IMG/VR virus record: IMGVR_UViG_2728369554_000001
Strand: one strand, 5' to 3'
DNA length: 10,639 nt
DNA from: a virus
Lineage: Duplodnaviria; Heunggongvirae; Uroviricota; Caudoviricetes
Below, piece by piece: positions 1-10,639 of this stretch. Every line of letters begins with the position of its first letter. Position 1 is the stretch's first letter. The position numbers and the translations under genes are program-made. The notes below the pieces were generated by a model. That model saw only the letters and a program-made list of their open reading frames with translations. It did not search any database and was not told where the DNA came from.

Positions 1-561
1 GCGCCAGTCGCCACTGCCGGAGCCTTCATAAGCAATATCAATGGCCACGGATTCGGTCGGGTTAAACTGCACGCCAGCCCCCCACGCCAGAGACGTGTTG
101 CTGTGGCGACCGTCATCACTTCCGGTCAGCACATCGTGCTTTTTCCCCTTGTTGTCAGTTACGCGAAGATAATCCCCGGAGAAAGTCGACACACGGCTGT
201 AAGCTACACCCGCCATCGCATACGCGCTGAACCATTCATTCACGCGCACAGACGGCCCCGCCATTACGCTGAACCAGCGGTTACGAACGGAATCTTCATG
301 CCAGCGGGTATCGCTGTAACGGGTCAGCTGGCGATTCTTGTCTCCTGCATAGCTGAATGACGTCACCAGCCCCAGTGTGTCCGTAAACTCATAACGGTAT
401 TTCACGTTAATCCCGTTCAGATCATCACTGCCGGGGACGTTCGTCGAGGCATGAAGATACCCCGCGCTCAGCGTGGACTGATGTTCAGACGCCCATGCAG
501 GCGCACCGGATACGGCCAGACAAATGGCTGCGGACAAAATGGCTGCACAAACTTTACGCAT
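1..561 (-). CDS. lom: Lom-family (Ail/OmpX/PagC-like) outer-membrane beta-barrel protein, prophage moron; partial, C-terminus runs off the window start
   Basis: Minus-strand ATG at 561..559 preceded by GAGAGG Shine-Dalgarno; my translation gives MRKVCAAILSAAICLAVSGAPAWA (signal-peptide-like) ... GINVKYRYEFTD ... SAYAMAGVAYSR ... AIDIAYEGSGSGDWR with no stop before position 1. Matches lambda Lom as recalled, and sits immediately downstream of J as in lambda. Absent from the ORF track because it has no in-window stop. Confidence 0.85.
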   Translation of the reverse strand, partial: MRKVCAAILSAAICLAVSGAPAWASEHQSTLSAGYLHASTNVPGSDDLNGINVKYRYEFTDTLGLVTSFSYAGDKNRQLTRYSDTRWHEDSVRNRWFSVMAGPSVRVNEWFSAYAMAGVAYSRVSTFSGDYLRVTDNKGKKHDVLTGSDDGRHSNTSLAWGAGVQFNPTESVAIDIAYEGSGSGDWR

Positions 562-585
562 AATTACCTCTCGCTTTTCTGCAAT

Positions 586-609
586 AAAAAAGGCGCCATT
601 TCTGGCGCC
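586..609 (-). terminator. Rho-independent terminator between J and lom (tJ-like)
   Basis: Perfect inverted repeat GGCGCCA (592-598) / TGGCGCC (603-609) with 4-nt loop; on the minus strand the hairpin is followed by a T6 run (591-586). Lies in the 67-nt J-lom intergenic region. Confidence 0.6.
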
Positions 610-628
610 CGTATATGGGTTATAAAAT

Positions 629-3600
629 TCAGCTGATACTGATGCCTGCGGTGGCTTTCTTCATCACCACAACCAGCAAATCGCTGATACTTGCTGTGGG
701 ATACCAGTCATTTACCAGCCATGCTGACACCGAAAACTCCAGCGTCATGTGACCGTGACCGGCAGGCATATCAATAACGCCACTGTAAATCAGCGTATTA
801 TCCAGCGCGGTACGGTTATAAATTTCAGCACCGTTTTTCCGCACTATCAGACGGCATGAGGAGTAAATATCAGTATGCTCTCTCTCATGTTTAGCGCCGC
901 TGAATGCCACCGCAGGAATAACAATCTGCCGGTCAAACGGCTGATCGTCATAAACCCTGACGGTAATGGTCCCTGATGGCCACCGTTCCGGTGCACGGGA
1001 GTCCCGGGGGAAAGCTTTGCCCACTGTTTTAACGAGATCGCCTTCAATCTGGTTCGCGGACAGTTTTCCCAGAACCCGACAGTTCTCGTTAATCGTGACG
1101 TTGTTGAGCGTCCCGGAGTTCGCATTCACGTTACCGCTGATATCGGCATTTTTCGCCGTCAGCCGCCCATCCGGTGTCAGGGAAAATGCCGGAGGATTAC
1201 CGCCGCTGGTAATGGTCGGAGCCGTCAGGCGTTTCAGGAACACGTCGTTCATGAATATCTGATCGCCCTGACCAACAAACATTGGTCTTGTGTTGCCATT
1301 AGACGGATCAATAAACGCGATACGGTTAGCGGCAACCAGGAACTGGCTCAGTTTGCCTTCCTCCGTGTCCTCCATGCTGAGGCCAATACCCGCGACATAA
1401 TGTTTGCCGTCTTTGGTCTGCTCAATTTTGACGCCCCACATGGCATTCCACTTATCACTGGCGTCCTTCCACTCTTTCGAAAACTCCTCCAGTTTGCTGG
1501 CGTTATCCTCCGTCAGCTCGACTTTTTCCAGCAGCTCCTTGCCAAGATGGGATTCGGTTATCTGGCCTTTGAAAAAATCCAGGTAACCTTCCGCATCATC
1601 GCTCGCCCGACCAACAGCCTCCACGAATGCCGATTTGCCAACGGTGTTCACACTGCGAACGTAAAAATAATAATCATGGCCCGGCCTGATATTGATACTG
1701 GCAGCTATCCAGTACAGCGCAAGATAGCGGGCTGTGGTTTCAACCTGCCTGATATCCGCAATCCGTTTTTCCGAGAACCAGAACTCAAACTGTACCGTCG
1801 GGTCATAAACCGCAAGATGTGGCGTGGCGGTTATCTGAAAATAGCCCGGTGTCAGCTCAATCCGAGACGGCGCTGCCGGTGCGGCAATCCGGAACGATAC
1901 CGATGCCGGATCGCCCTGCAGCCCCCACGCATTTACCGCCCGGACCGTCAGCATGTAACGCCCCAGCGCCAGTTGCGTGAAGCGGTATGTGGTTTCCGTC
2001 GTCCGGGCCGTGCTGACCAGCCGCTCACTGCCGTCATCCGCTGCCACGGTCAGGCGAAGCAGGAAGCTCACGCCCTTCACCACTTTCGGCGTGTCCCAGC
2101 GGGCCAGCACCTGATATTCCCCGCTGTCTGCGGTGACTTCGGCAGTCAGGTGCTGCACCGCTGGCGGCGTGACACCATTCACCGTGCCGCTCTGGTCGCC
2201 GTCAAAGTGCGCCCCGTTATCCACGATGGCCTCTTTCTCCGGTACATGCTGCACGGCAGTGATGGCATACGTGCCGTCGTCGTTCTCACGGATACTCACG
2301 CAGCGGAACAGGCGCTGGCGCAACGTCGGCAACTTCAGCCCCCACACGCTGTATTCAGCAACGCCGTCAGGAACACGGCTCACTTTCACCTTCACGCCGT
2401 CGGTGACGGACTGGACCTCCACGCTGACCGGATTACCCTCACCGTCAACCAGGCTTATCAGCGTGGTGCCGGAGGATGGCAGCGTGATTTCACGGTCGAG
2501 CGTCAGCGTCCGGGTCTGGCTGTTCACCGCCAGCACGCGACCACCGATGCTGATACCGGCATAGTCATCATCGCAGATTTCAATAACATCGCCCGGCACA
2601 TGGCGAAGCCCTTCTGCGCCCACGCTGAAATCCACGGTCTGCGTTTCCAGCAGTTCCGTTTTAATCAGCCACAGCCCGGCTCGGTGTGCCTGCCCCCGAC
2701 TGGTACAACCAAAGGCATCCATCTTCGTGACATTACGACCGTAACGGGCAATGGCCTGCGTATCTTCAACAAGCTCTGTCGCCGTCTCCCAGCCGTTGTT
2801 CGGGTCAATCCAGTTCACCTCAACGGCATTATGGCGGTCCTTCAGGGCGCTGAAGCTGTAGCGGAACGGCGCGCCATCATCCGGCATCACCACATTACTG
2901 CGGTTATAGGTCCACACCTTATCCGATGGCCGGTCCTGCACGAACGTCAGCGTCTGCCCGTTCCATACCGGCATACAGCGCATCGCCGAGCAGAAATCAC
3001 TGAGCACATCCCACGCCTTGCGCTGTGTGGTCAGGTAAGCGTTACAGGTGATGCGCGGCTCCGTGCCGCCAAAGCCGTCCGGCACCGACTGGTCGCAATT
3101 CTGGCCGATGACATACAGCGCCCATTTATCCACATCCGCCGCACCAAGACGTTTCCCCATGCCGTAGCGCGGATGGGTCAGCATATCCCACAGACACCAG
3201 GCCATGTTGTTGCTGTATGCCGGTTTTAACGTTCCGTCCCAGATACCGCTGTATTGCCGCGTCTGCGGGTTATAGTTCGACGGCACCTGCAGAATGCGCC
3301 CGCGAAGATGATAATTACGGCTCACCTGCTGGCTGCCGAACTGCTCCGAATCCACCTGTACGCCGACCAGTGCCGTGTTCGGGTAGCACTGTTTCACATC
3401 GATGATTTCGGTGTATGACGACCAGAGCGTTTTGTTCTGCAGCTGGTCTGTGGTGCTGTCCGGCGTCATCCTGCGCATCCGGATATTAAACGGGCGCGGC
3501 GGCAGGTTATCCACCACCACCGAGGCCAGATACTGCGAGGTGGTTTTGCCCTTAATGGTGATGTCTTTTTCCGTCACCCAGCCACCGTTACGCTGTATCT

Positions 3601-4018
3601 GAACCAGCAGGCGGACTTCCGATGGATTCCTGTCCCCCTTTGAGGTGGTTTCCACCAGTGCCAGCACACCGAAGGTAAAGCGCAGACGGTCGATGTTTGC
3701 CGACGTGATGGTGCGGGTGATCGGCGTGTCATATTTCACTTCCGTACCCAGCACCGTCTCGGAGCCGGAGGATTCAAATCCCTCCGGCGGTGTCTGCTCC
3801 TGCTCACCTGCCCGGAACACCACCGTGACGCCGGAGATGTTGGTATTCCCCTCAGTGTCCAGCACTGGCGTACTGTTCAGCAGCACGCTTTTTAATCCAT
3901 CCACCGGACCTTCAATCGGCCCTTCGCTGATGGCATCGATCACACTCAGCAACTGCGTGGACTTCAGGTTGTCCTTCGCTTCGCGCGGAGTATGCCCCTT
4001 ACTGCTGCCTTTACCCAT
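629..4018 (-). CDS. J: Tail tip / central tail fibre host-specificity protein J (about 1129 aa)
   Basis: ORF-track ORF 629..4063; the first listed M is a GTG at 4063. The lambda-J-like N-terminus [34 protein letters not shown] begins at ATG 4018..4016. Near-collinear with lambda J as recalled over most of its length. Stop TGA at 631..629. Confidence 0.93.
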
Positions 4019-4078
4019 TCCTAACGCTCCATAAACGACAAAACCGCCCGGAGGCGGTTTCACATAAAACGTTTTTCA

Positions 4079-4726
4079 TCAGCGACCAATCACTACAACC
4101 TGACCACCATCCCCTTCGTCTGCCGTGCTGATCTCCTGAGAGACCACCCGCGACCCCACGCGCATTTCACCGTACAGAACGGGCAGAACATTGCCCTGGG
4201 CAACCATGTTATCCAGTGAGGAGAAATAGGTGTTCTGTTTGCCGTTATCTGTACTTGCTGCCGTGGGCGTCCTGGCTTTCGGTGCCAGCATCTGCGCCAC
4301 TCCGCCCAGGATCATACTGGCCCCTGCCGCATACATGCCCGATACAGCCGCGGCACCCAGCCAGCCCACAGGGTTCCACCATGCCACCGCAATCAGCGCC
4401 GCCCCCAGCACCACCTGAAACACACCGCCACTTTTAGCTCCCGCCAGACGCGGCACGATGTGGATCACGGCACCATTTGCCAGCGGCTCATTAAGACGGG
4501 CAGACAATTCGGTTTCACCTGCATCACGCCCGGCAATGCGTACCTGGTACCAGCCGTCGCTCAGTTTCTGACGAAACGCCGGGATCTGCATGGCCAGCGC
4601 CCGGATGGCTTCAGACCCCGTTTTCACTCGAAGGTCGATGCGGCGGCCAAATCGTTGTAAATCCCCGTAAAGGCAGATGCGTGCCATGCCCGGTGACGCC
4701 AGAGGGAGTGTGTGCGTCGCTGCCAT
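4079..4726 (-). CDS. I: Tail tip assembly protein I (215 aa)
   Basis: ATG at 4726..4724; protein MAATHTLPLASPGMARICLYGDLQRFGRRIDLRVKTG ... NGKQNTYFSSLDNMVAQGNVLPVLYGEMRVGSRVVSQEISTADEGDGGQVVVIGR matches lambda gpI as recalled. 60-nt gap before J, as I recall for lambda. Confidence 0.9.
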   Translation of the reverse strand: MAATHTLPLASPGMARICLYGDLQRFGRRIDLRVKTGSEAIRALAMQIPAFRQKLSDGWYQVRIAGRDAGETELSARLNEPLANGAVIHIVPRLAGAKSGGVFQVVLGAALIAVAWWNPVGWLGAAAVSGMYAAGASMILGGVAQMLAPKARTPTAASTDNGKQNTYFSSLDNMVAQGNVLPVLYGEMRVGSRVVSQEISTADEGDGGQVVVIGR

Positions 4727-5367
4727 TTGTCGGTATACCTCTCTCGTTTACTCAGTTGTTCAGGAATATGGTGCAGCAGCTCACCGTCGCCGCAGTAAAT
4801 GGCGGCATGATTCGGCACCGATGAACCAAAACAGCACAGCAGCACATCGCCCGGTTGTGCTGATGACAACGCCACCTGATACAGCCCTGTGGCCTCCAGA
4901 TTATCCAGATAGAGATTCTGACCGTTACGCCACCAGTCATCCCCGCGATGAAAATCCGGCATCTCAATCCCCGCCAGATGATAAGCATCCCGGAACAGCG
5001 TGTAACAGTCCGTCACCCCGTGCTCAAAGCGCCGCCCGGTGAGATGCGGCACACAGCGGAACTTGTGAATCGCCCCCCGGCAGACCAGCCACCACGGCAA
5101 ATCACTCTGCACCTGCAGCCGCCGGTCAGCCTCACTCAGCCAGGGCAGACCACCGGGATGACTGTGGACCAGTGCCACAATCTCACCCTGCATCTCTGCC
5201 TGCAGCCAGTCCTCCGGAGCCATCCGGAAATAATCCTCCGGCTCACCGGAAATATTCACGCAGGGAAAATATCTTTCCCCCTCCGGCGCTCTCACCACGA
5301 AGCCGCACGACTCCGCTGGCGCACATCGCCGGGCGTGCGCCAGAATCGCTGATTCTGTCTCTGTCAT
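4624..5367 (-). CDS. K: Tail tip assembly protein K, JAMM/MPN + NlpC/P60 two-domain protein (247 aa from the ATG chosen here)
   Basis: ORF 4624..5409 in track, but 5409 is a TTG. First ATG is 5367..5365 (MTETESAIL...), 4 nt after the L stop. Contains the JAMM-type motif HSHPGGLPWLSEAD and a downstream Cys/His-containing NlpC/P60-like region (DCYTLF ... HAAIY). 3' end overlaps the I start by 103 nt. Confidence 0.85.
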   Translation of the reverse strand: MTETESAILAHARRCAPAESCGFVVRAPEGERYFPCVNISGEPEDYFRMAPEDWLQAEMQGEIVALVHSHPGGLPWLSEADRRLQVQSDLPWWLVCRGAIHKFRCVPHLTGRRFEHGVTDCYTLFRDAYHLAGIEMPDFHRGDDWWRNGQNLYLDNLEATGLYQVALSSAQPGDVLLCCFGSSVPNHAAIYCGDGELLHHIPEQLSKRERYTDKWQRRTHSLWRHRAWHASAFTGIYNDLAAASTFE

Positions 5368-5371
5368 GGGA

Positions 5372-6070
5372 TTACTGCGAAAGTTTGTTAATGGAAAGGA
5401 AGCCGCCAAAGTTGCCGACGTTATTGCGAAACTTACAGCCGCTCAGGCATTTGCTGCATTTATCCTTCGTGATATCGGACGTCGGCTGGTCATATTCATC
5501 CGCGACTGCCGGACCGTGATAACCGCACTCATCACCGCGATAGGTCCAGGTGCAGGTGTTGGCCAGCATGATACGTCCCGGAAAAACAGCGCCGTCCGTT
5601 TCCGTCGGCGTGGACAGTACAAAAGAGGCACTCACCGCGCTCAGTTCGCTGCACTGCTCAATGCGCCAGCGGCTGATCACCTCCTGCTCCGGATCGGCGT
5701 CACTGTTTCCGTTGACGAAGTTCACCGCATCCAGAAAACGGGCGTAAACCTTACGCCGGACCACCGTTCCGCCGACCAGACTCTGCAGATCTTCCGCCAT
5801 CCCGGTGACCATACCGTACAGGTTAGAAACCGTCAGTGTCGGACGGGCAGCACTGCCCTTGCCGTTCAGTTCAAATCCCGTCCCCTGAATGGGGTATACC
5901 TGATACTGCCGCCCCTGCCAGATAACCGGCTCACCTTTTTCGTTCTGCTCATTACAGAAAAAATAACGTTCACCACCGACCTCTGTCAGATCGATTTCCC
6001 AGNNNNNNNNNNNNNNNNNNNNNNNNNNNNNNNNNNNNNNNNNNNNNNNNNNNNNNNNNNNNNNNNNNNN
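5372..6070 (-). CDS. L: Minor tail / tail tip protein L; N-terminal ~23 codons lie in the N run, start estimated
   Basis: Readable from 6001 downward: WEIDLTEVGGERYFFCNEQNEKGEPVIWQGRQYQ ... CSKCLSGCKFRNNVGNFGGFLSINKLSQ, stop TAA 5374..5372. Matches lambda gpL as recalled from its residue 24 onward. Start at about 6070 is extrapolated, assuming the 153-N run is true length. Confidence 0.8.
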   Translation of the reverse strand, partial: XXXXXXXXXXXXXXXXXXXXXXXWEIDLTEVGGERYFFCNEQNEKGEPVIWQGRQYQVYPIQGTGFELNGKGSAARPTLTVSNLYGMVTGMAEDLQSLVGGTVVRRKVYARFLDAVNFVNGNSDADPEQEVISRWRIEQCSELSAVSASFVLSTPTETDGAVFPGRIMLANTCTWTYRGDECGYHGPAVADEYDQPTSDITKDKCSKCLSGCKFRNNVGNFGGFLSINKLSQ

Positions 6071-6155
6071 NNNNNNNNNNNNNNNNNNNNNNNNNNNNNN
6101 NNNNNNNNNNNNNNNNNNNNNNNNNNNNNNNNNNNNNNNNNNNNNNNNNNNNNNN
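6003..6155. other. Run of 153 N (assembly gap or masked bases) spanning the M end / L start junction
   Basis: Directly visible in the sequence. Confidence 0.99.
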
Positions 6156-6395
6156 TTTCCAGTCATAAGGTGGCGTCCACTGAAATGCACGGACGCCACC
6201 GTGCCGTTCCAGAAAGGCTTTTAAAGATGGGTGGTCACATTTACGAACACGTATCGTCACGCTGTAAGTCGACAACTGGTTATTCAGTCCCGCCGCACGA
6301 CGCTGTTCATAACCATCGCCCAGCTTCACTGTCACCACTTTCGGCTCTGATACCACATTCATATCCGGGCGCACTTTCCAGTGAAACGTCTCCAT
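6066..6395 (-). CDS. M: Minor tail protein M; C-terminal ~29 codons lie in the N run, end estimated
   Basis: ATG 6395..6393; METFHWKVRPDMNVVSEPKVVTVKLGDGYEQRRAAGLNNQLSTYSVTIRVRK ... WTPPYDWK (80 aa readable) matches lambda gpM as recalled. The ATG overlaps the H stop (TAATG). End coordinate extrapolated from the lambda M length (109 aa) as recalled. Confidence 0.8.
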
Positions 6396-9300
6396 TACCG
6401 ATATGCTCCACTTAACCGACCACCATCACGGGCCTGCTGTTGCATAAAGTCCGCTGCCGCTTTTTTCCCGAGGTCATAAACCGCCTTCAGGGCAGCCGGA
6501 CCTATCTGCCCGTTCGTGCCATCGTTATTGATCTCGATGTTGTACTGCGGGGAAAACATCGCCATACCTGACCCCCCAATATCCGCCACAACCCCCAGCT
6601 TACCGTCAGCACCACGACGCAATGGCAGAATGGCTTCAGGTCCCGCTTCCCCCATCACACCCGCGCCTTTTGCAAAAGCAAAAAACGTCGGACGGTTAAC
6701 CACCGTGCCACTGTAACGACTCAAATCAGCAGACTGATAAATCCCCCCATTGGCATTCAGGGAAAGGCTGCTGAGATCAAATCCCAGTACACTGCCAATC
6801 CCTTTTATCGATTTCATCATGGTTGCCTGCGCCAGGATTTTCGCCATATCTGACAGCACAGAAGAGGTGAAGGATTTGAAATTGAGTTTGCCGGTAGTGA
6901 CAAAAGTTGCCAGGCCATTTCCCATGTTGCTGAAGGCTGACGAGAACACCTGTTCTGCTGTTTCTGCCGTATTATCTGCATCCACGGTAAAATCCTGAAA
7001 TGCACGCAGGACTCCGTTTTTCCAGTTACCCTGCACAACTTCAAGCTGTTGCCAGTAACGGCGATTCTCATTCAGTTGTCGGTTCAGGCTCTCCGTCAGC
7101 GCCTGCTCGGCCTTTCTGTAGTCATCCGTGTTATATGTCCCTTTCTGCTCACTATCCCGCCTCAACNNNNNNNNNNNNNNNNNNNNNNNNNNNNNNNNNN
7201 NNNNNNNNNNNNNNNNNNNNNNNNNNNNNNNNNNNNNNNNNNNNNNNNNNNNNNNNNNNNNNNNNNNNNNNNNNNNNNNNNNNNNNNNNNNNNNNNNNNN
7301 NNNNNNNNNNNNNNNNNNNNNNNNNNNNNNNNNNNNNNNNNNNNNNNNNNNNNNNNNNNNNNNNNNNNNNNNNNNNGTCGCTGATGCGCTGCTGCAGAGC
7401 CAGAAGCTGTTTATGCGCTTCTGTCATCCTTTCCGTGGCAATGCCTGCTGACTGTCTGGCAGCAGCAATCTGTCCTTCCACCTGTGCCTGTTGCTGACTG
7501 TACTGCAGCAATAACCGGGTGGCCTCATCATTACGGGTTTCGCGTGTTTTTTTCTTACCGGATGCCAGGGCTTTCTCGTAACGTTCATTTTCACGTTGTA
7601 TCGCCGCATCCCTGACAGCCTGATCGGCGTACTGCATGGCATTAATACGCGCAATTTCACGCTGATGTCGTGCAGCTTCCGTTTCATTCATCCGGTTCAG
7701 TGCAGCATTTTCAGCATTACGGCGTTTCTGTTGCTCCTGATAATTCCGCTCTGCCTGCTCTTTTGCATCCTGCAAATCCTTCTGGCGTTTTTTCTCCTGA
7801 AGATCGTTAAGACGCTGCTGATCGTATTCAACCTGAGAAGATGATGCCGTCCAGGGGAGTCTTTTCGCCCGCGACACTTTCTCCTGTAAAGCGGCAATCT
7901 GTTCATCCAGCGAGTCTTCACGACCAATATTCATGGCCGCATCCCAGAAACGACTCCACAAATCAGACAGATACTTCAGCGTACTGCCAAGCGCATTGAG
8001 GTTATTATCAATATCCGCAGTACGCCGACCGGTTTCCTCTGCCAGTGCAGACATGGCTATCCGTGCAGCATCACTGGACCGCCCCTGCTCCCCAAGGACG
8101 CGTATCTGCTCAAGCTGAGTGGCAGTAAGAAAATGCAGCTCATTGTCCAGAGCCTTCGCGGCATTTACAGGATCATCCTTCAGCCGCTTAAACTGATTTA
8201 TGGTATCGCTGACCGACTGGCCAACCGATCGCTCCATCTGTGCGGCAGCTCTCGCCACCATACCGATATCGTTTCCACGAAATGCACCACTCCCCACCAC
8301 CTGAGCCAGCGCACCGGCTGCAGCATGTTGCGTGATACCATTCCCGGAAATAGCACGACTGAGCGTCCACAGCTGCCCGGCAGTGACTCCGGCATAATGC
8401 CCCGTCAGCGACAGCTGGCGGTTAAATTCTTCCCCCTCCTTCTGACCGTCATACCAGGCTTTACCCAGGCCATAGACAGCCGCGGCAATACCGCCAATAA
8501 CCCCGCCAAGCATCATGCCTTTCGGTGACATCAATGTGTCTATCCACCCAGCACGGTTAGCCAGCGTTATTCCGGATCCCCTCAGCGCACCTAAATTTCC
8601 GCGGGCCAGTTCACCTATCAGAACGCCTATCTCCTGACGGGCCGCTGCANNNNNNNNNNACTGGCGGTTAAATTCTTCCCCCTCCTTCTGACCGTCATAC
8701 CAGGCTTTACCCAGACCATAGACGGCCGCGGCAATACCGCCAATAACCCCGCCAAGCATCATGCCTTTCGGTGACATCAGTGTGTCTATCCATCCGGCAC
8801 GGTTAGCCAGCGTTATCCCGGATCCCCTCAGCGCACCTAAATTTCCGCGGGCCAGTTCACCTATCAGAACGCCTATCTCCTGACGGGCCGCTGCACTTTT
8901 CAGCCCCAGCGAATGCGTGGCTTTTCCTGCCTGCTCCATTTTGCGGATATACACTTCTGCAGCACTGCTTACCCCCAGCTGGGCAGCCTTAGCACGAAGC
9001 AACTCAGAAGAAGAAAGATTCTGGCGGGTTGCCTGCTCTTTAAGCTGACGGATAAACGCCACTTTCTGTCGGGTAGCCTCTTCCTCAGCCTGTGTAAGAA
9101 NNNNNNNNNNTGCCTTAGCACGAAGCAACTCAGAAGATGAAAGATTCAGGCGGGTTGCCTGCTCTTTAAGCTGACGGATAAACGCCACTTTCTGTCGGGT
9201 AGCCTCTTCCTCAGCCTGTGTAAGAACACGGGTTTTCGCCGTAACCTCAGAAATCAGCGCCAGATAATCCTGCTGACCAATCCCGCCACTGTTTCTGGCC

Positions 9301-10069
9301 TGTCGGATCTGCTGCTGAATACGCTGTAATTCCTGCAGCCCCGCACTGGCCTGTTTCACACTGTCAATCTGACGATAAAACGCAGCAGCCGCTTTATCCT
9401 GAGCCTCCGCCAGAGCCATGGCCTGCGCCTGTTCCTCGCGCATTTTCTGGCTCAGTGCCTCCATGCGCTGGCGGGTTTTCTCCACCTCGCGGGCCATGCG
9501 TTCATGAGCCTGTGCGTTCTTCTCCACCGTCTGCGCATGGACGGATGCGGCTGTTGCAGCCGAAGAAGCTGCCTGCGTTGTCTGCCGGGCGGCCTGAGTC
9601 TGACGCTCCATAAAACGCTGCATACGGGCAGAAGACCGTTCTGCATCGNNNNNNNNNNACCCGCACTGGCCTGTTTCACACTGTCAATCTGACGATAAAA
9701 CGCAGCAGCAGCTTTATCCTGAGCCTCCGCCAGAGCCATGGCCTGCGCCTGTTCCTCGCGCATTTTCTGGCTCAGCGCCTCCATACGCTGGCGGGTTTTC
9801 TCCACCTCGCGGGCCATGCGTTCATGAGCCTGTGCGTTCTTCTCCACCGTCTGCGCATGAACGGATGCGGCTGTTGCAGCCGAAGACGCCGCCTGCGTTG
9901 TCTGCCGGGCGGCCTGAGTCTGACGCTCCATAAAACGCTGCATACGGGCAGAAGACCGTTCTGCATCGCTGGCTGCACCATTCAGAAGGTTTTTGATACG
10001 GGGGATTTCATTTTTAAACTCTGCCGCATCAATCCCCAAATCAATGACCAGGTTGGCTATCTGGTCCAT
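6395..10069 (-). CDS. H: Tail tape measure protein (lambda H-like); as assembled it is broken by a 210-N run, three 10-N joins with duplicated flanks and two frame changes
   Basis: N-terminus MDQIANLVIDLGIDAAEF at ATG 10069..10067 with GGAGGTG Shine-Dalgarno 8 nt upstream (track start 10099 is a TTG). Coiled-coil-like Ala/Gln/Arg/Glu-rich middle and a hydrophobic Gly-rich segment (MMLGGVIGGIAAAVYGL). C-terminus INNDGTNGQIGPAALKAVYDLGKK ... RDGGRLSGAYR matches the lambda gpH C-terminus as recalled. Stop TAA 6397..6395. True length cannot be stated from this assembly. Confidence 0.85.
7167..7376. other. Run of 210 N inside the tape measure gene; reading frame differs on the two sides
   Basis: Directly visible. 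The frame carrying H above the run (ORF 7152..9623) is not the frame of the H C-terminal ORF (6395..7165), although 210 is a multiple of 3. Confidence 0.99.
8415..8895. repeat. Direct duplication, 235 bp x 2 (8415..8649 and 8661..8895), separated by exactly 10 N; assembly-join artefact candidate
   Basis: Copies align at offset 246 with 6 mismatches; N run at 8650..8659. Confidence 0.9.
8986..9226. repeat. Direct duplication, 115 bp x 2 (8986..9100 and 9112..9226), separated by exactly 10 N; assembly-join artefact candidate
   Basis: Copies align at offset 126 with 2 mismatches; N run at 9101..9110. Confidence 0.9.
9340..9968. repeat. Direct duplication, 309 bp x 2 (9340..9648 and 9660..9968), separated by exactly 10 N; assembly-join artefact candidate
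   Basis: Copies align at offset 320 with 6 mismatches; N run at 9649..9658. Offset is not a multiple of 3, so it splits the tape measure ORF into two frames. Confidence 0.9.
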
Positions 10070-10391
10070 AACGCACACCTCCGGAAATACCTTCCCCAAG
10101 ATGCATCAGTTCTTCGTCCGTTCGCTCCGGTATCCCGTTCTCTTCCGGTAAAAGGCTGAAATCAGCCACCGCAGCATCACTGCTGCCGGACACCATTCTC
10201 ACGATCAATGCCTTCAGCGAGGCAAACTGCGCATCCATCCACACATCACTGAAGCTCTGCATCCGGAAATAATCGCCCCACTCACCAAGCTCAGTGGCCG
10301 ACATTTCCGACAGCATCCGCCGCCAGTCTGCCCGCCGGAACTCCCGGGCAAGCCGCATGACAAACTGCATTTCCCGCGTCAGGACTTTTCC
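10041..10391 (-). CDS. T: T portion of the tail assembly chaperone GT fusion, entered by -1 programmed frameshift from G
   Basis: The -1 frame relative to G is open from the candidate slip site (10391) to a TGA at 10043..10041 (ORF-track ORF 10041..10370). Position between G and the tape measure and overlap with the G end are the conserved G-T architecture of long-tailed phages. No sequence match to lambda T is claimed. Confidence 0.6.
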   Translation of the reverse strand, partial: GKVLTREMQFVMRLAREFRRADWRRMLSEMSATELGEWGDYFRMQSFSDVWMDAQFASLKALIVRMVSGSSDAAVADFSLLPEENGIPERTDEELMHLGEGISGGVRYGPDSQPGH

Positions 10392-10639
10392 GGCGTCAGC
10401 GCCTCATGCTCATCATCCACGGCATTATCAATGGCCCCCATACCGCTCAGCGACAGAACCATCTCCGCCCCCGCACCCAGGGCATCATACGACCATGTTG
10501 TAATAACGGATGCGCAAAGCGTCTCTACATCCTTAGACTGATCCGCATTCCACAGTGAGCGGGAAACCAGCCAGGCATTGATATCCATCCCCATCCGCAG
10601 AAAAGCAATCTGTCGTTCAGCCTCCGGCAGTTCTCCCTC
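10379..10639 (-). CDS. G: Tail assembly chaperone G-like protein; partial, N-terminus beyond the window end
   Basis: Minus-strand frame is open from the window end (EGELPEAERQIAFLRMGMDINAWLV ... AIDNAVDDEHEALTPEKS) to TGA at 10381..10379. Acidic C-terminus; sits directly upstream of T/H. Assigned by position and frameshift architecture, not by recognised sequence identity to lambda G. Confidence 0.6.
   Translation of the reverse strand, partial: EGELPEAERQIAFLRMGMDINAWLVSRSLWNADQSKDVETLCASVITTWSYDALGAGAEMVLSLSGMGAIDNAVDDEHEALTPEKS
10385..10391 (-). promoter_or_regulatory. Candidate -1 programmed ribosomal frameshift heptamer (G GAA AAG) for G to GT
   Basis: Minus-strand reading ccg gaa aag tcc TGA: heptamer GGAAAAG sits two codons before the G stop; shifting -1 gives gga aaa gtc ctg ... 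in the open T frame. One mismatch to the lambda heptamer G GGA AAG as I recall it. Confidence 0.45.

Follow-up and report, generated by a model that had tools for sequence, protein, structure and literature searches.

Doubled segments in the tape measure gene of a lambdoid prophage scaffold as a probable artifact of short-read assembly

Unmerged bubble arms in short-read scaffolds (haplotig or paralog duplications) are a known phenomenon in heterozygous genomes and at collapsed repeats, for example multiple lambdoid prophages of E. coli. They involve two near-identical templates and a false tandem duplication whose bounds are set by variant positions and by k-1 nucleotides, both arms being retained in series with an N gap of minimum size between them. 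Among assemblers, Velvet writes a minimum gap of 10 N, outputs nodes without their k-1 prefix and leaves bubbles of more than 100 k-mers unmerged. The window analyzed here, a stretch of 10,639 nt of viral DNA (Caudoviricetes; IMG/VR record IMGVR_UViG_2728369554_000001), contains three doubled segments that share the paired templates, the bounds and the serial arrangement of such bubble arms and do not differ from them in kind; their geometry is clean enough for k=79 to be read from it.

The doubled segments lie in a gene that an earlier note, made from the sequence alone, had taken for a lambda-type tape measure gene. This assignment is borne out by RefSeq, where the gene is labeled phage tail tape measure protein in complete genomes with 99% identity; by Pfam domains, TMP_2 (168 bits, curated cut-off 30.2) and Tape_meas_lam_C (82 bits, curated cut-off 23), with TMP_4 also found; and by the adjoining T gene. 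The gene is placed between homologs of T and M, in line with the position of gpH between the G/T chaperone genes and M-L-K-I-J in the tail module, and the 99%-identical prophages are annotated with this order too. The gene-level features are as follows.

6395..10069, minus strand: tail tape measure gene (H) of lambda type, 3,675 nt as deposited; coordinates mapped from the RefSeq coding sequences of the references L026 and L001
10041..10370, minus strand: tail assembly protein T gene, directly upstream of H, identified by Pfam Phage_tail_T and the RefSeq annotation of relatives
7167..7376: scaffold gap within H, 210 N, where near-identical relatives have 293 nt

The closest known counterpart is the lambda gpH-type tail tape measure protein of E. 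coli lambdoid prophages, for example WP_000372024.1 of strain MS20653; over its first 667 residues, the de-duplicated product departs from this MS20653 protein at one or two positions. Unlike the gpH-type genes of E. coli lambdoid prophages, the deposited copy carries artifactual insertions of 246, 126 and 320 nt (692 nt in all) in addition to the 210-N gap. These three insertions, together with a gap that takes the place of 293 nt, account for the span of 3,675 nt; H is in reality about 3,066 nt long (1,021 aa). Three of the fetched prophages have a gene of 3,066 bp and the other two one of 3,057 bp, and none of them has the duplication. The insertions at the first two joins are in frame, whereas the third, which comprises the duplicate and the Ns, is not a multiple of three, and the reading frame as deposited is therefore broken there.

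Five N runs were found in the window: 6003-6155 (153 N), 7167-7376 (210 N), 8650-8659, 9101-9110 and 9649-9658. The latter three, referred to below as joins 1 to 3, each place exactly 10 N, as a mere placeholder, between two copies of the same segment that are about 98% identical. Ungapped comparison and a repeat search both identified the pairs 8415-8649 and 8661-8895 (235 bp, six mismatches), 8986-9100 and 9112-9226 (115 bp, two mismatches), and 9340-9648 and 9660-9968 (309 bp, six mismatches), recovering the same lengths and mismatch numbers as the earlier note. Repeats so long at 98% identity cannot have arisen by chance, and these three pairs are the only direct repeats of at least 40 nt within 7377-10639. 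Comparison of the flanks of the 153-N and 210-N runs found no overlap, so that an explanation by overlapping pieces was dropped for these two and they were taken as ordinary sized gaps; their lengths come roughly near the 167 and 293 nt for which they stand. An Rfam scan of the window gave no match.

The count of about 14 mismatches claimed earlier holds inside the repeats as delimited above and falls short of the full number of differences. When the first base past each 10-N run (8660, 9111 and 9659) is aligned to 8414, 8985 and 9339, respectively, it is mismatched each time, and hence the duplicated blocks measure 236, 116 and 310 nt and the variant sites number 17. The arms of the three putative bubbles, the joins between them and the variant sites (in coordinates of the left copy) are listed below; the haplotype types are named after the reference prophages L002, L003, L026 and L027.

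8414..8649: bubble 1, first-printed arm, 236 nt, from the first SNP at 8414 to 78 nt past the last SNP at 8571; L003/L027-type prophage haplotype
8650..8659: join 1, 10-N placeholder
8660..8895: bubble 1, second-printed arm, 236 nt, seven differences from the first arm; L002/L026-type prophage haplotype
8985..9100: bubble 2, first arm, 116 nt, last SNP at 9022 plus 78 giving 9100; L003-type haplotype
9101..9110: join 2, 10-N placeholder
9111..9226: bubble 2, second arm, 116 nt, three differences, one of them Q201L; L002/L026-type haplotype
9339..9648: bubble 3, first arm, 310 nt, last SNP at 9570 plus 78 giving 9648; L002/L026-type haplotype
9649..9658: join 3, 10-N placeholder
9659..9968: bubble 3, second arm, 310 nt, seven differences; L003-type haplotype
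Variant sites of bubble 1: 8414, 8469, 8478, 8534, 8547, 8550, 8571
Variant sites of bubble 2: 8985, 9012, 9022
Variant sites of bubble 3: 9339, 9390, 9456, 9465, 9540, 9567, 9570

The boundaries of the blocks follow one rule. At all three joins the distance from the last mismatch to the end of the left piece is 78 nt (8571 to 8649, 9022 to 9100 and 9570 to 9648) and the right piece opens on a variant base. With k=79, therefore, every duplicated block starts at its first SNP and ends k-1 nt past its last. The spacing of SNPs is at most 75 nt inside bubbles, which is less than k, and amounts to 414 and 317 nt between bubbles. A two-template k-mer graph with the arms set in series and separated by 10 N reproduced 7377-10639 (3,263 nt) base for base at k=79, while the exact match failed at k of 31, 55, 63, 75, 77, 78, 80, 81, 91, 99 and 127; the templates of this model were taken from the window itself, and its independent tests are the specificity for a single k and the boundary rule only.

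These observations suggest that the three doubled segments are almost certainly an artifact of short-read assembly, in which both bubble arms of two near-identical templates were written in series. The sequenced DNA would have held two versions of this segment of H with 17 clustered differences, and a de Bruijn graph built at k=79 would have turned every cluster of SNPs into a two-armed bubble. The scaffolder would then have kept both arms and set them one after the other, and an estimated distance between them of zero or less would have caused the minimum gap of 10 N to be written. Each node would have been printed without its k-1 prefix, which would yield a duplicated block extending from the first SNP of the cluster to 78 nt past the last. 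From the sequence alone we infer two templates and k=79, and the assembler was probably Velvet: the 10-N joins, the pieces lacking a prefix, and the 153 and 210 N standing for 167 and 293 nt form a pattern that fits the conventions of Velvet, although a full-text search of the literature found no confirmation of the 10-N minimum gap and the associated conventions.

Comparison with complete genomes supports the same reading. The four pieces of the window map to overlapping coordinates on a collinear reference tape measure gene, the overlaps being 235, 115 and 309 nt, which agrees with the earlier proposal that the duplications are unmerged overlapping assembly pieces. The overlap itself is upheld by these data, while the further description of the pieces as overlapping contig ends has to be amended, as the ends are not arbitrary and correspond to de Bruijn bubble arms with k=79. 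Over its whole length (100% coverage), a de-duplicated stretch of 1,201 nt aligns in one piece to the best complete E. coli genomes, at 99.0-99.8% identity, and alignments covering 80% or more of it are found in 1,822 records; the suspicion that the amino acid repeats in H are not real is confirmed by this unbroken alignment. For bubble 3, matches of 100% identity occur in many complete genomes for the first arm and in 16 for the second.

The alleles of the window at all 17 sites are those of two lambdoid prophages located at 1.70 Mb and 4.56 Mb in the complete genome of E. coli 20Ec-P-124 (NZ_AP017610.1). All but one of the 17 differences are synonymous, the exception being Q201L in bubble 2. 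Since both members of every allele pair occur in the two prophages of one genome and since nearly all the differences are synonymous, both templates are, as judged by these comparisons, real, as the earlier note had held. Sequencing errors as a source of the mismatches were ruled out on the same grounds, the alleles forming natural haplotype blocks and the prevalence of synonymous differences marking them as real alleles under selection. A simulation of bubbles with k=79 on the two 20Ec-P-124 genes gave bubble starts at the same three sites, and the arm lengths of bubbles 2 and 3 equaled the observed 116 and 310 nt. 20Ec-P-124 is not the strain from which the window came. Further differences between its prophages and the window occur at 8589-8643, 8904 and 9240, and in the J region, where identity is only 90-96%. 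MS20653, which is among the nearest relatives (99.8-99.9% identity to positions 1-7166), harbors a second prophage, in which 13 of the 17 sites show the alternative allele. Dense differences separate L003 and L027 from the window at 7887-7989, yet the window has no bubble there; the second template is thus not identical to these reference prophages. A sequence pattern spanning join 1 with its Ns was not found among viral contigs, and a 45-mer specific to the J gene of the window occurred in 22 viral and 10 metagenome contigs but in no species-representative genome; none of these contigs had N runs or was an exact match to the window.

Given the artifact, the two templates probably were the H genes of two lambdoid prophages residing together in one E. 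coli genome. The earlier note had left the choice between paralogs and a mixed population, and paralogs suffice, as one complete genome contains both haplotypes in two prophages; a mixture stays as the alternative. According to this alternative, which we consider possible and clearly less likely, the same artifact was produced from a mixed sample, such as two strains of E. coli, a metagenome, or a culture that was contaminated or polymorphic for the prophage. The window cannot separate a mixture from paralogs, as both yield bubbles; both haplotypes are common among E. coli; and this type of gene, found at 2,035 places in 1,853 genomes (median one), is present in more than one copy in only about one tenth of them. 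On the other hand, the variation is limited to three clusters within 1.5 kb, and positions 1-6002 and 9969-10639 are free of any bubbles, whereas a mixture of strains would be expected to scatter them. Moreover, the complete genomes of 20Ec-P-124 and MS20653 hold these haplotypes as co-resident paralogs.

It is improbable that separate contigs were ordered after assembly, by reference or at submission, and joined by a fixed 10-N spacer with their overlapping ends left untrimmed. The flanks do overlap, and fixed spacers of 10 N are widely used where the size of a gap is not known; however, a contig built from k-mers would start 78 nt before the first SNP, while all three right pieces start on the SNP, and the closeness of 153 and 210 N to the true 167 and 293 nt points to the assembler's own distance-estimating scaffolder. 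Also improbable is a history of gene conversion between co-resident lambdoid prophages, recent or ongoing in culture, behind the two haplotypes. The first arm of bubble 3 is of the L002/L026 type and those of bubbles 1 and 2 are of the L003 type; if gene conversion had occurred, this change of phase after bubble 2, like the lack of differences in the sequence that separates the bubbles, would mark recombination tracts instead of an arbitrary order chosen by the scaffolder, and the duplications would still be artifacts. Real tandem duplications that lengthen the tail, with the Ns as small unsequenced junctions, can be practically dismissed: the length of the tape measure gene varies among phages and two of the joins happen to be in frame, but the boundaries are set by SNP positions and a single k, the frame shift at join 3 is unexpected for a duplication within the gene of an essential tail protein, the fetched relatives lack the duplications and the de-duplicated query aligns to complete genomes unbroken, the copies of each pair match two distinct natural haplotypes rather than a recent copy of one, and the junctions consist of Ns with no contiguous sequence.

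The doubled segments are not a biological feature. The boundary rule described above, by which a block ends k-1 nt past its last SNP, provides a simple test from sequence alone, which could flag the same artifact in other drafts and recover their k. As the order of the arms switches phase between bubbles 2 and 3, keeping all left or all right copies may build a chimeric allele. The record as deposited leads to a tape measure protein with false internal repeats of 82 and 42 aa and a frameshift, and its copy of H would be annotated as broken or abnormally long. Conclusions on tail length, repeat structure or pseudogenization that are drawn from the deposited H would mislead.

The window covers the tail module of an E. 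coli lambdoid prophage, with all genes on the minus strand; the gene order in 99%-identical complete genomes is Lom-like, J, tail assembly protein (I), C40 peptidase (K), L, M, tape measure, T and G. The tape measure gene has Pfam matches to TMP_2 (168 bits), TMP_4 and Tape_meas_lam_C (82 bits), and the adjoining gene matches Phage_tail_T. Once doubled segments are removed, the N-terminal 667 residues of its product have 1-2 differences from WP_000372024.1 (strain MS20653); among the fetched prophages the gene is 3,066 bp long in three and 3,057 bp in two. The G homologue end (10379-10400, minus strand) reads ...CCGGAAAAGTCCTGA, just upstream of the T start at 10370; in lambda-type phages G and T are fused by a programmed -1 frameshift at about this position. 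A 609-aa ORF running antisense through the J gene (1400-3229, plus strand) most probably represents a frame that is open by chance in this long GC-rich gene.

Features of the window
6395-10069, minus strand, tape measure gene
6003-6155, long N run, 153 N
7167-7376, long N run, 210 N
8650-8659, 10-N join 1
9101-9110, 10-N join 2
9649-9658, 10-N join 3
8415-8649 and 8661-8895, repeat pair at join 1, 235 bp, 6 mismatches
8986-9100 and 9112-9226, repeat pair at join 2, 115 bp, 2 mismatches
9340-9648 and 9660-9968, repeat pair at join 3, 309 bp, 6 mismatches

Five N runs are present, two of them long and three of exactly 10 N. Ungapped flank comparison and a repeat finder recovered the near-identical copies that the earlier note had described at the three joins, with the same coordinates, lengths and mismatch counts, and 7377-10639 contains no other direct repeats of at least 40 nt; comparison of the flanks of the 153-N and 210-N runs gave no overlap. 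The total of 14 variants given in that note has to be corrected. The base that directly follows each 10-N run (8660, 9111 and 9659) pairs with 8414, 8985 and 9339, respectively, and is mismatched in every case, so that the duplicated blocks are 236, 116 and 310 nt long and the variant sites number 17.

The window was compared by blastn with L001, a complete prophage.

Collinear pieces of the window on L001 (blastn)
window 7377-8649, L001 8078-9350
window 8661-9100, L001 9116-9555
window 9112-9648, L001 9441-9977
window 9660-10639, L001 9669-10648

The four pieces overlap on L001 by 235, 115 and 309 nt, and the same pattern was seen in four other prophages. A 1,201-nt stretch was de-duplicated in two ways, once by keeping all left and once by keeping all right copies. 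Both versions aligned unbroken over their full length (100% coverage) to the best-matching complete E. coli genomes, with 99.0-99.8% identity, and 1,822 records span 80% or more of the stretch. In the deposited sequence, the first two joins insert 246 and 126 nt, both in frame, and join 3 inserts 320 nt and breaks the reading frame. The amino acid repeats in H, which the earlier note suspected of being unreal, are indeed false, arising from the two in-frame joins, and the genes of relatives are collinear. The doubled segments are thus artefacts of assembly, and the gene that holds them is a lambda-type tape measure gene of the ordinary kind.

Each pair of blocks is referred to below as a bubble, with a left arm (printed first) and a right arm. 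At all three joins the left piece ends exactly 78 nt after the last mismatch (8571 to 8649, 9022 to 9100 and 9570 to 9648), and the right piece starts exactly on a variant base. The largest gap between neighbouring variants inside any block is 75 nt, the gaps between blocks being 414 and 317 nt. This pattern is what a de Bruijn graph built with k=79 leaves behind. In such a graph, variants nearer than k would merge into a single bubble, whose arms would consist of all k-mers holding at least one variant; with nodes printed as the last base per k-mer, an arm would start at the first SNP and end 78 nt beyond the last one. We modeled this by cutting two templates into shared and differing k-mer runs, printing shared nodes once and differing runs as arm A, 10 N and arm B. 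At k=79 the model regenerated 7377-10639 (3,263 nt) base for base, its templates being derived from the window, so that what it tests independently is whether a single k and one printing rule fit all six boundaries, as they do; it failed at all other k tried (31, 55, 63, 75, 77, 78, 80, 81, 91, 99 and 127). At 2% divergence, chance would be extremely unlikely to give the same end distance three times and a mismatched first base three times. The earlier reading of the segments as unmerged overlapping assembly pieces therefore stands, refined to bubble arms bounded by SNPs and k=79.

All but one of the 17 differences are synonymous, the exception being Q201L. The left arm of bubble 3 is found in 751 records at at least 99% identity (60 of the 60 matches listed are at 100%), and its right arm in 16 records at 100%. 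The two templates that the mismatches had been taken to imply are real alleles and not errors. The complete genome of E. coli 20Ec-P-124 (NZ_AP017610.1) matches both bubble 3 arms at 100%, at 1.70 Mb and 4.56 Mb, and the allele pairs of the window equal those of its co-resident prophages L002 and L003 at all 17 sites. In a k=79 bubble simulation on the L002 and L003 genes, bubbles opened at the three sites where those of the window start. The second and third had the same positions and arm lengths (116 and 310) as in the window, and the first was longer because 20Ec-P-124 carries extra differences. The complete genomes nearest to window 1-6002, at 99.8%, are APEC O1, S88 and MS20653, which we take to belong to the ST95 extraintestinal pathogenic E. 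coli lineage. MS20653 (NZ_CP082085.1) has two prophages of this type: L026, 99.8-99.9% identical to window 1-7166, and L027, with the alternative allele at 13 of 17 sites. These two prophage pairs make co-resident paralogues a sufficient and well-precedented source, and we consider them the probable origin of the templates in this sample. A strain mixture, the other source proposed earlier, would yield the same bubbles, and multiple copies occur in just about a tenth of the genomes that have a gene of this type (2,035 places in 1,853 genomes); however, all the variation falls into three clusters that lie within 1.5 kb and the J-to-L region is free of it, and a mixture is the less likely of the two. 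Searches of viral, species-representative genome and metagenome collections did not turn up the contig from which the window derives.

Window 1-6002 (J-to-L) is only 88-96% identical to the other fetched lambdoid prophages, some of which do not align around 1300-1527, as is typical of the mosaic J host-range region. The L002/L003 and L026/L027 pairs share ~98-99% identity over most of the tail module, falling to ~75-80% over a stretch of ~300 nt (L026 12700-13000) that lies in the C-terminal third of the tape measure gene, a sharp mosaic patch in an otherwise near-identical gene.

Velvet prints scaffold gaps estimated at less than 10 bp as at least 10 N, stores nodes without the k-1 prefix and by default leaves bubbles of more than 100 k-mers unmerged. 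The arms of 116, 236 and 310 k-mers all exceed this limit. We infer that Velvet was the assembler; for these conventions the searchable literature offered no confirmation. The 153-N gap, which takes out the L homologue start and the M homologue end, and the 210-N gap, inside the tape measure gene, correspond to 167 and 293 nt in near-identical relatives (L019 and L026), sizes consistent with a distance-estimating scaffolder. The reference prophage pairs differ little at both long gaps, and such differences do not account for the assembly failure there. It is unlikely that separate contigs were joined by a fixed spacer after assembly, since such contigs would retain their first full k-mer and begin 78 nt before the first SNP, not on it. 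A real tandem duplication is ruled out by the N junctions, the join 3 frameshift, its absence from relatives and boundaries set by SNPs and k, and sequencing error as the mismatch source by the natural haplotypes and synonymous bias.

In bubbles 1 and 2 the arm printed first has the L003-type haplotype, in bubble 3 the L002/L026-type one (sites 8414-9890). The scaffolder may have placed the arms in arbitrary order, or the two copies in the sample may be recombinant mosaics. De-duplication keeping one side throughout may build a chimera; yet L001 is a natural haplotype that is almost all-left (15 of 17 sites), so the printed order may also be a true phase. The doubled segments are without biological novelty; what the result offers is a warning to annotators and an easy check for artefacts of this kind.
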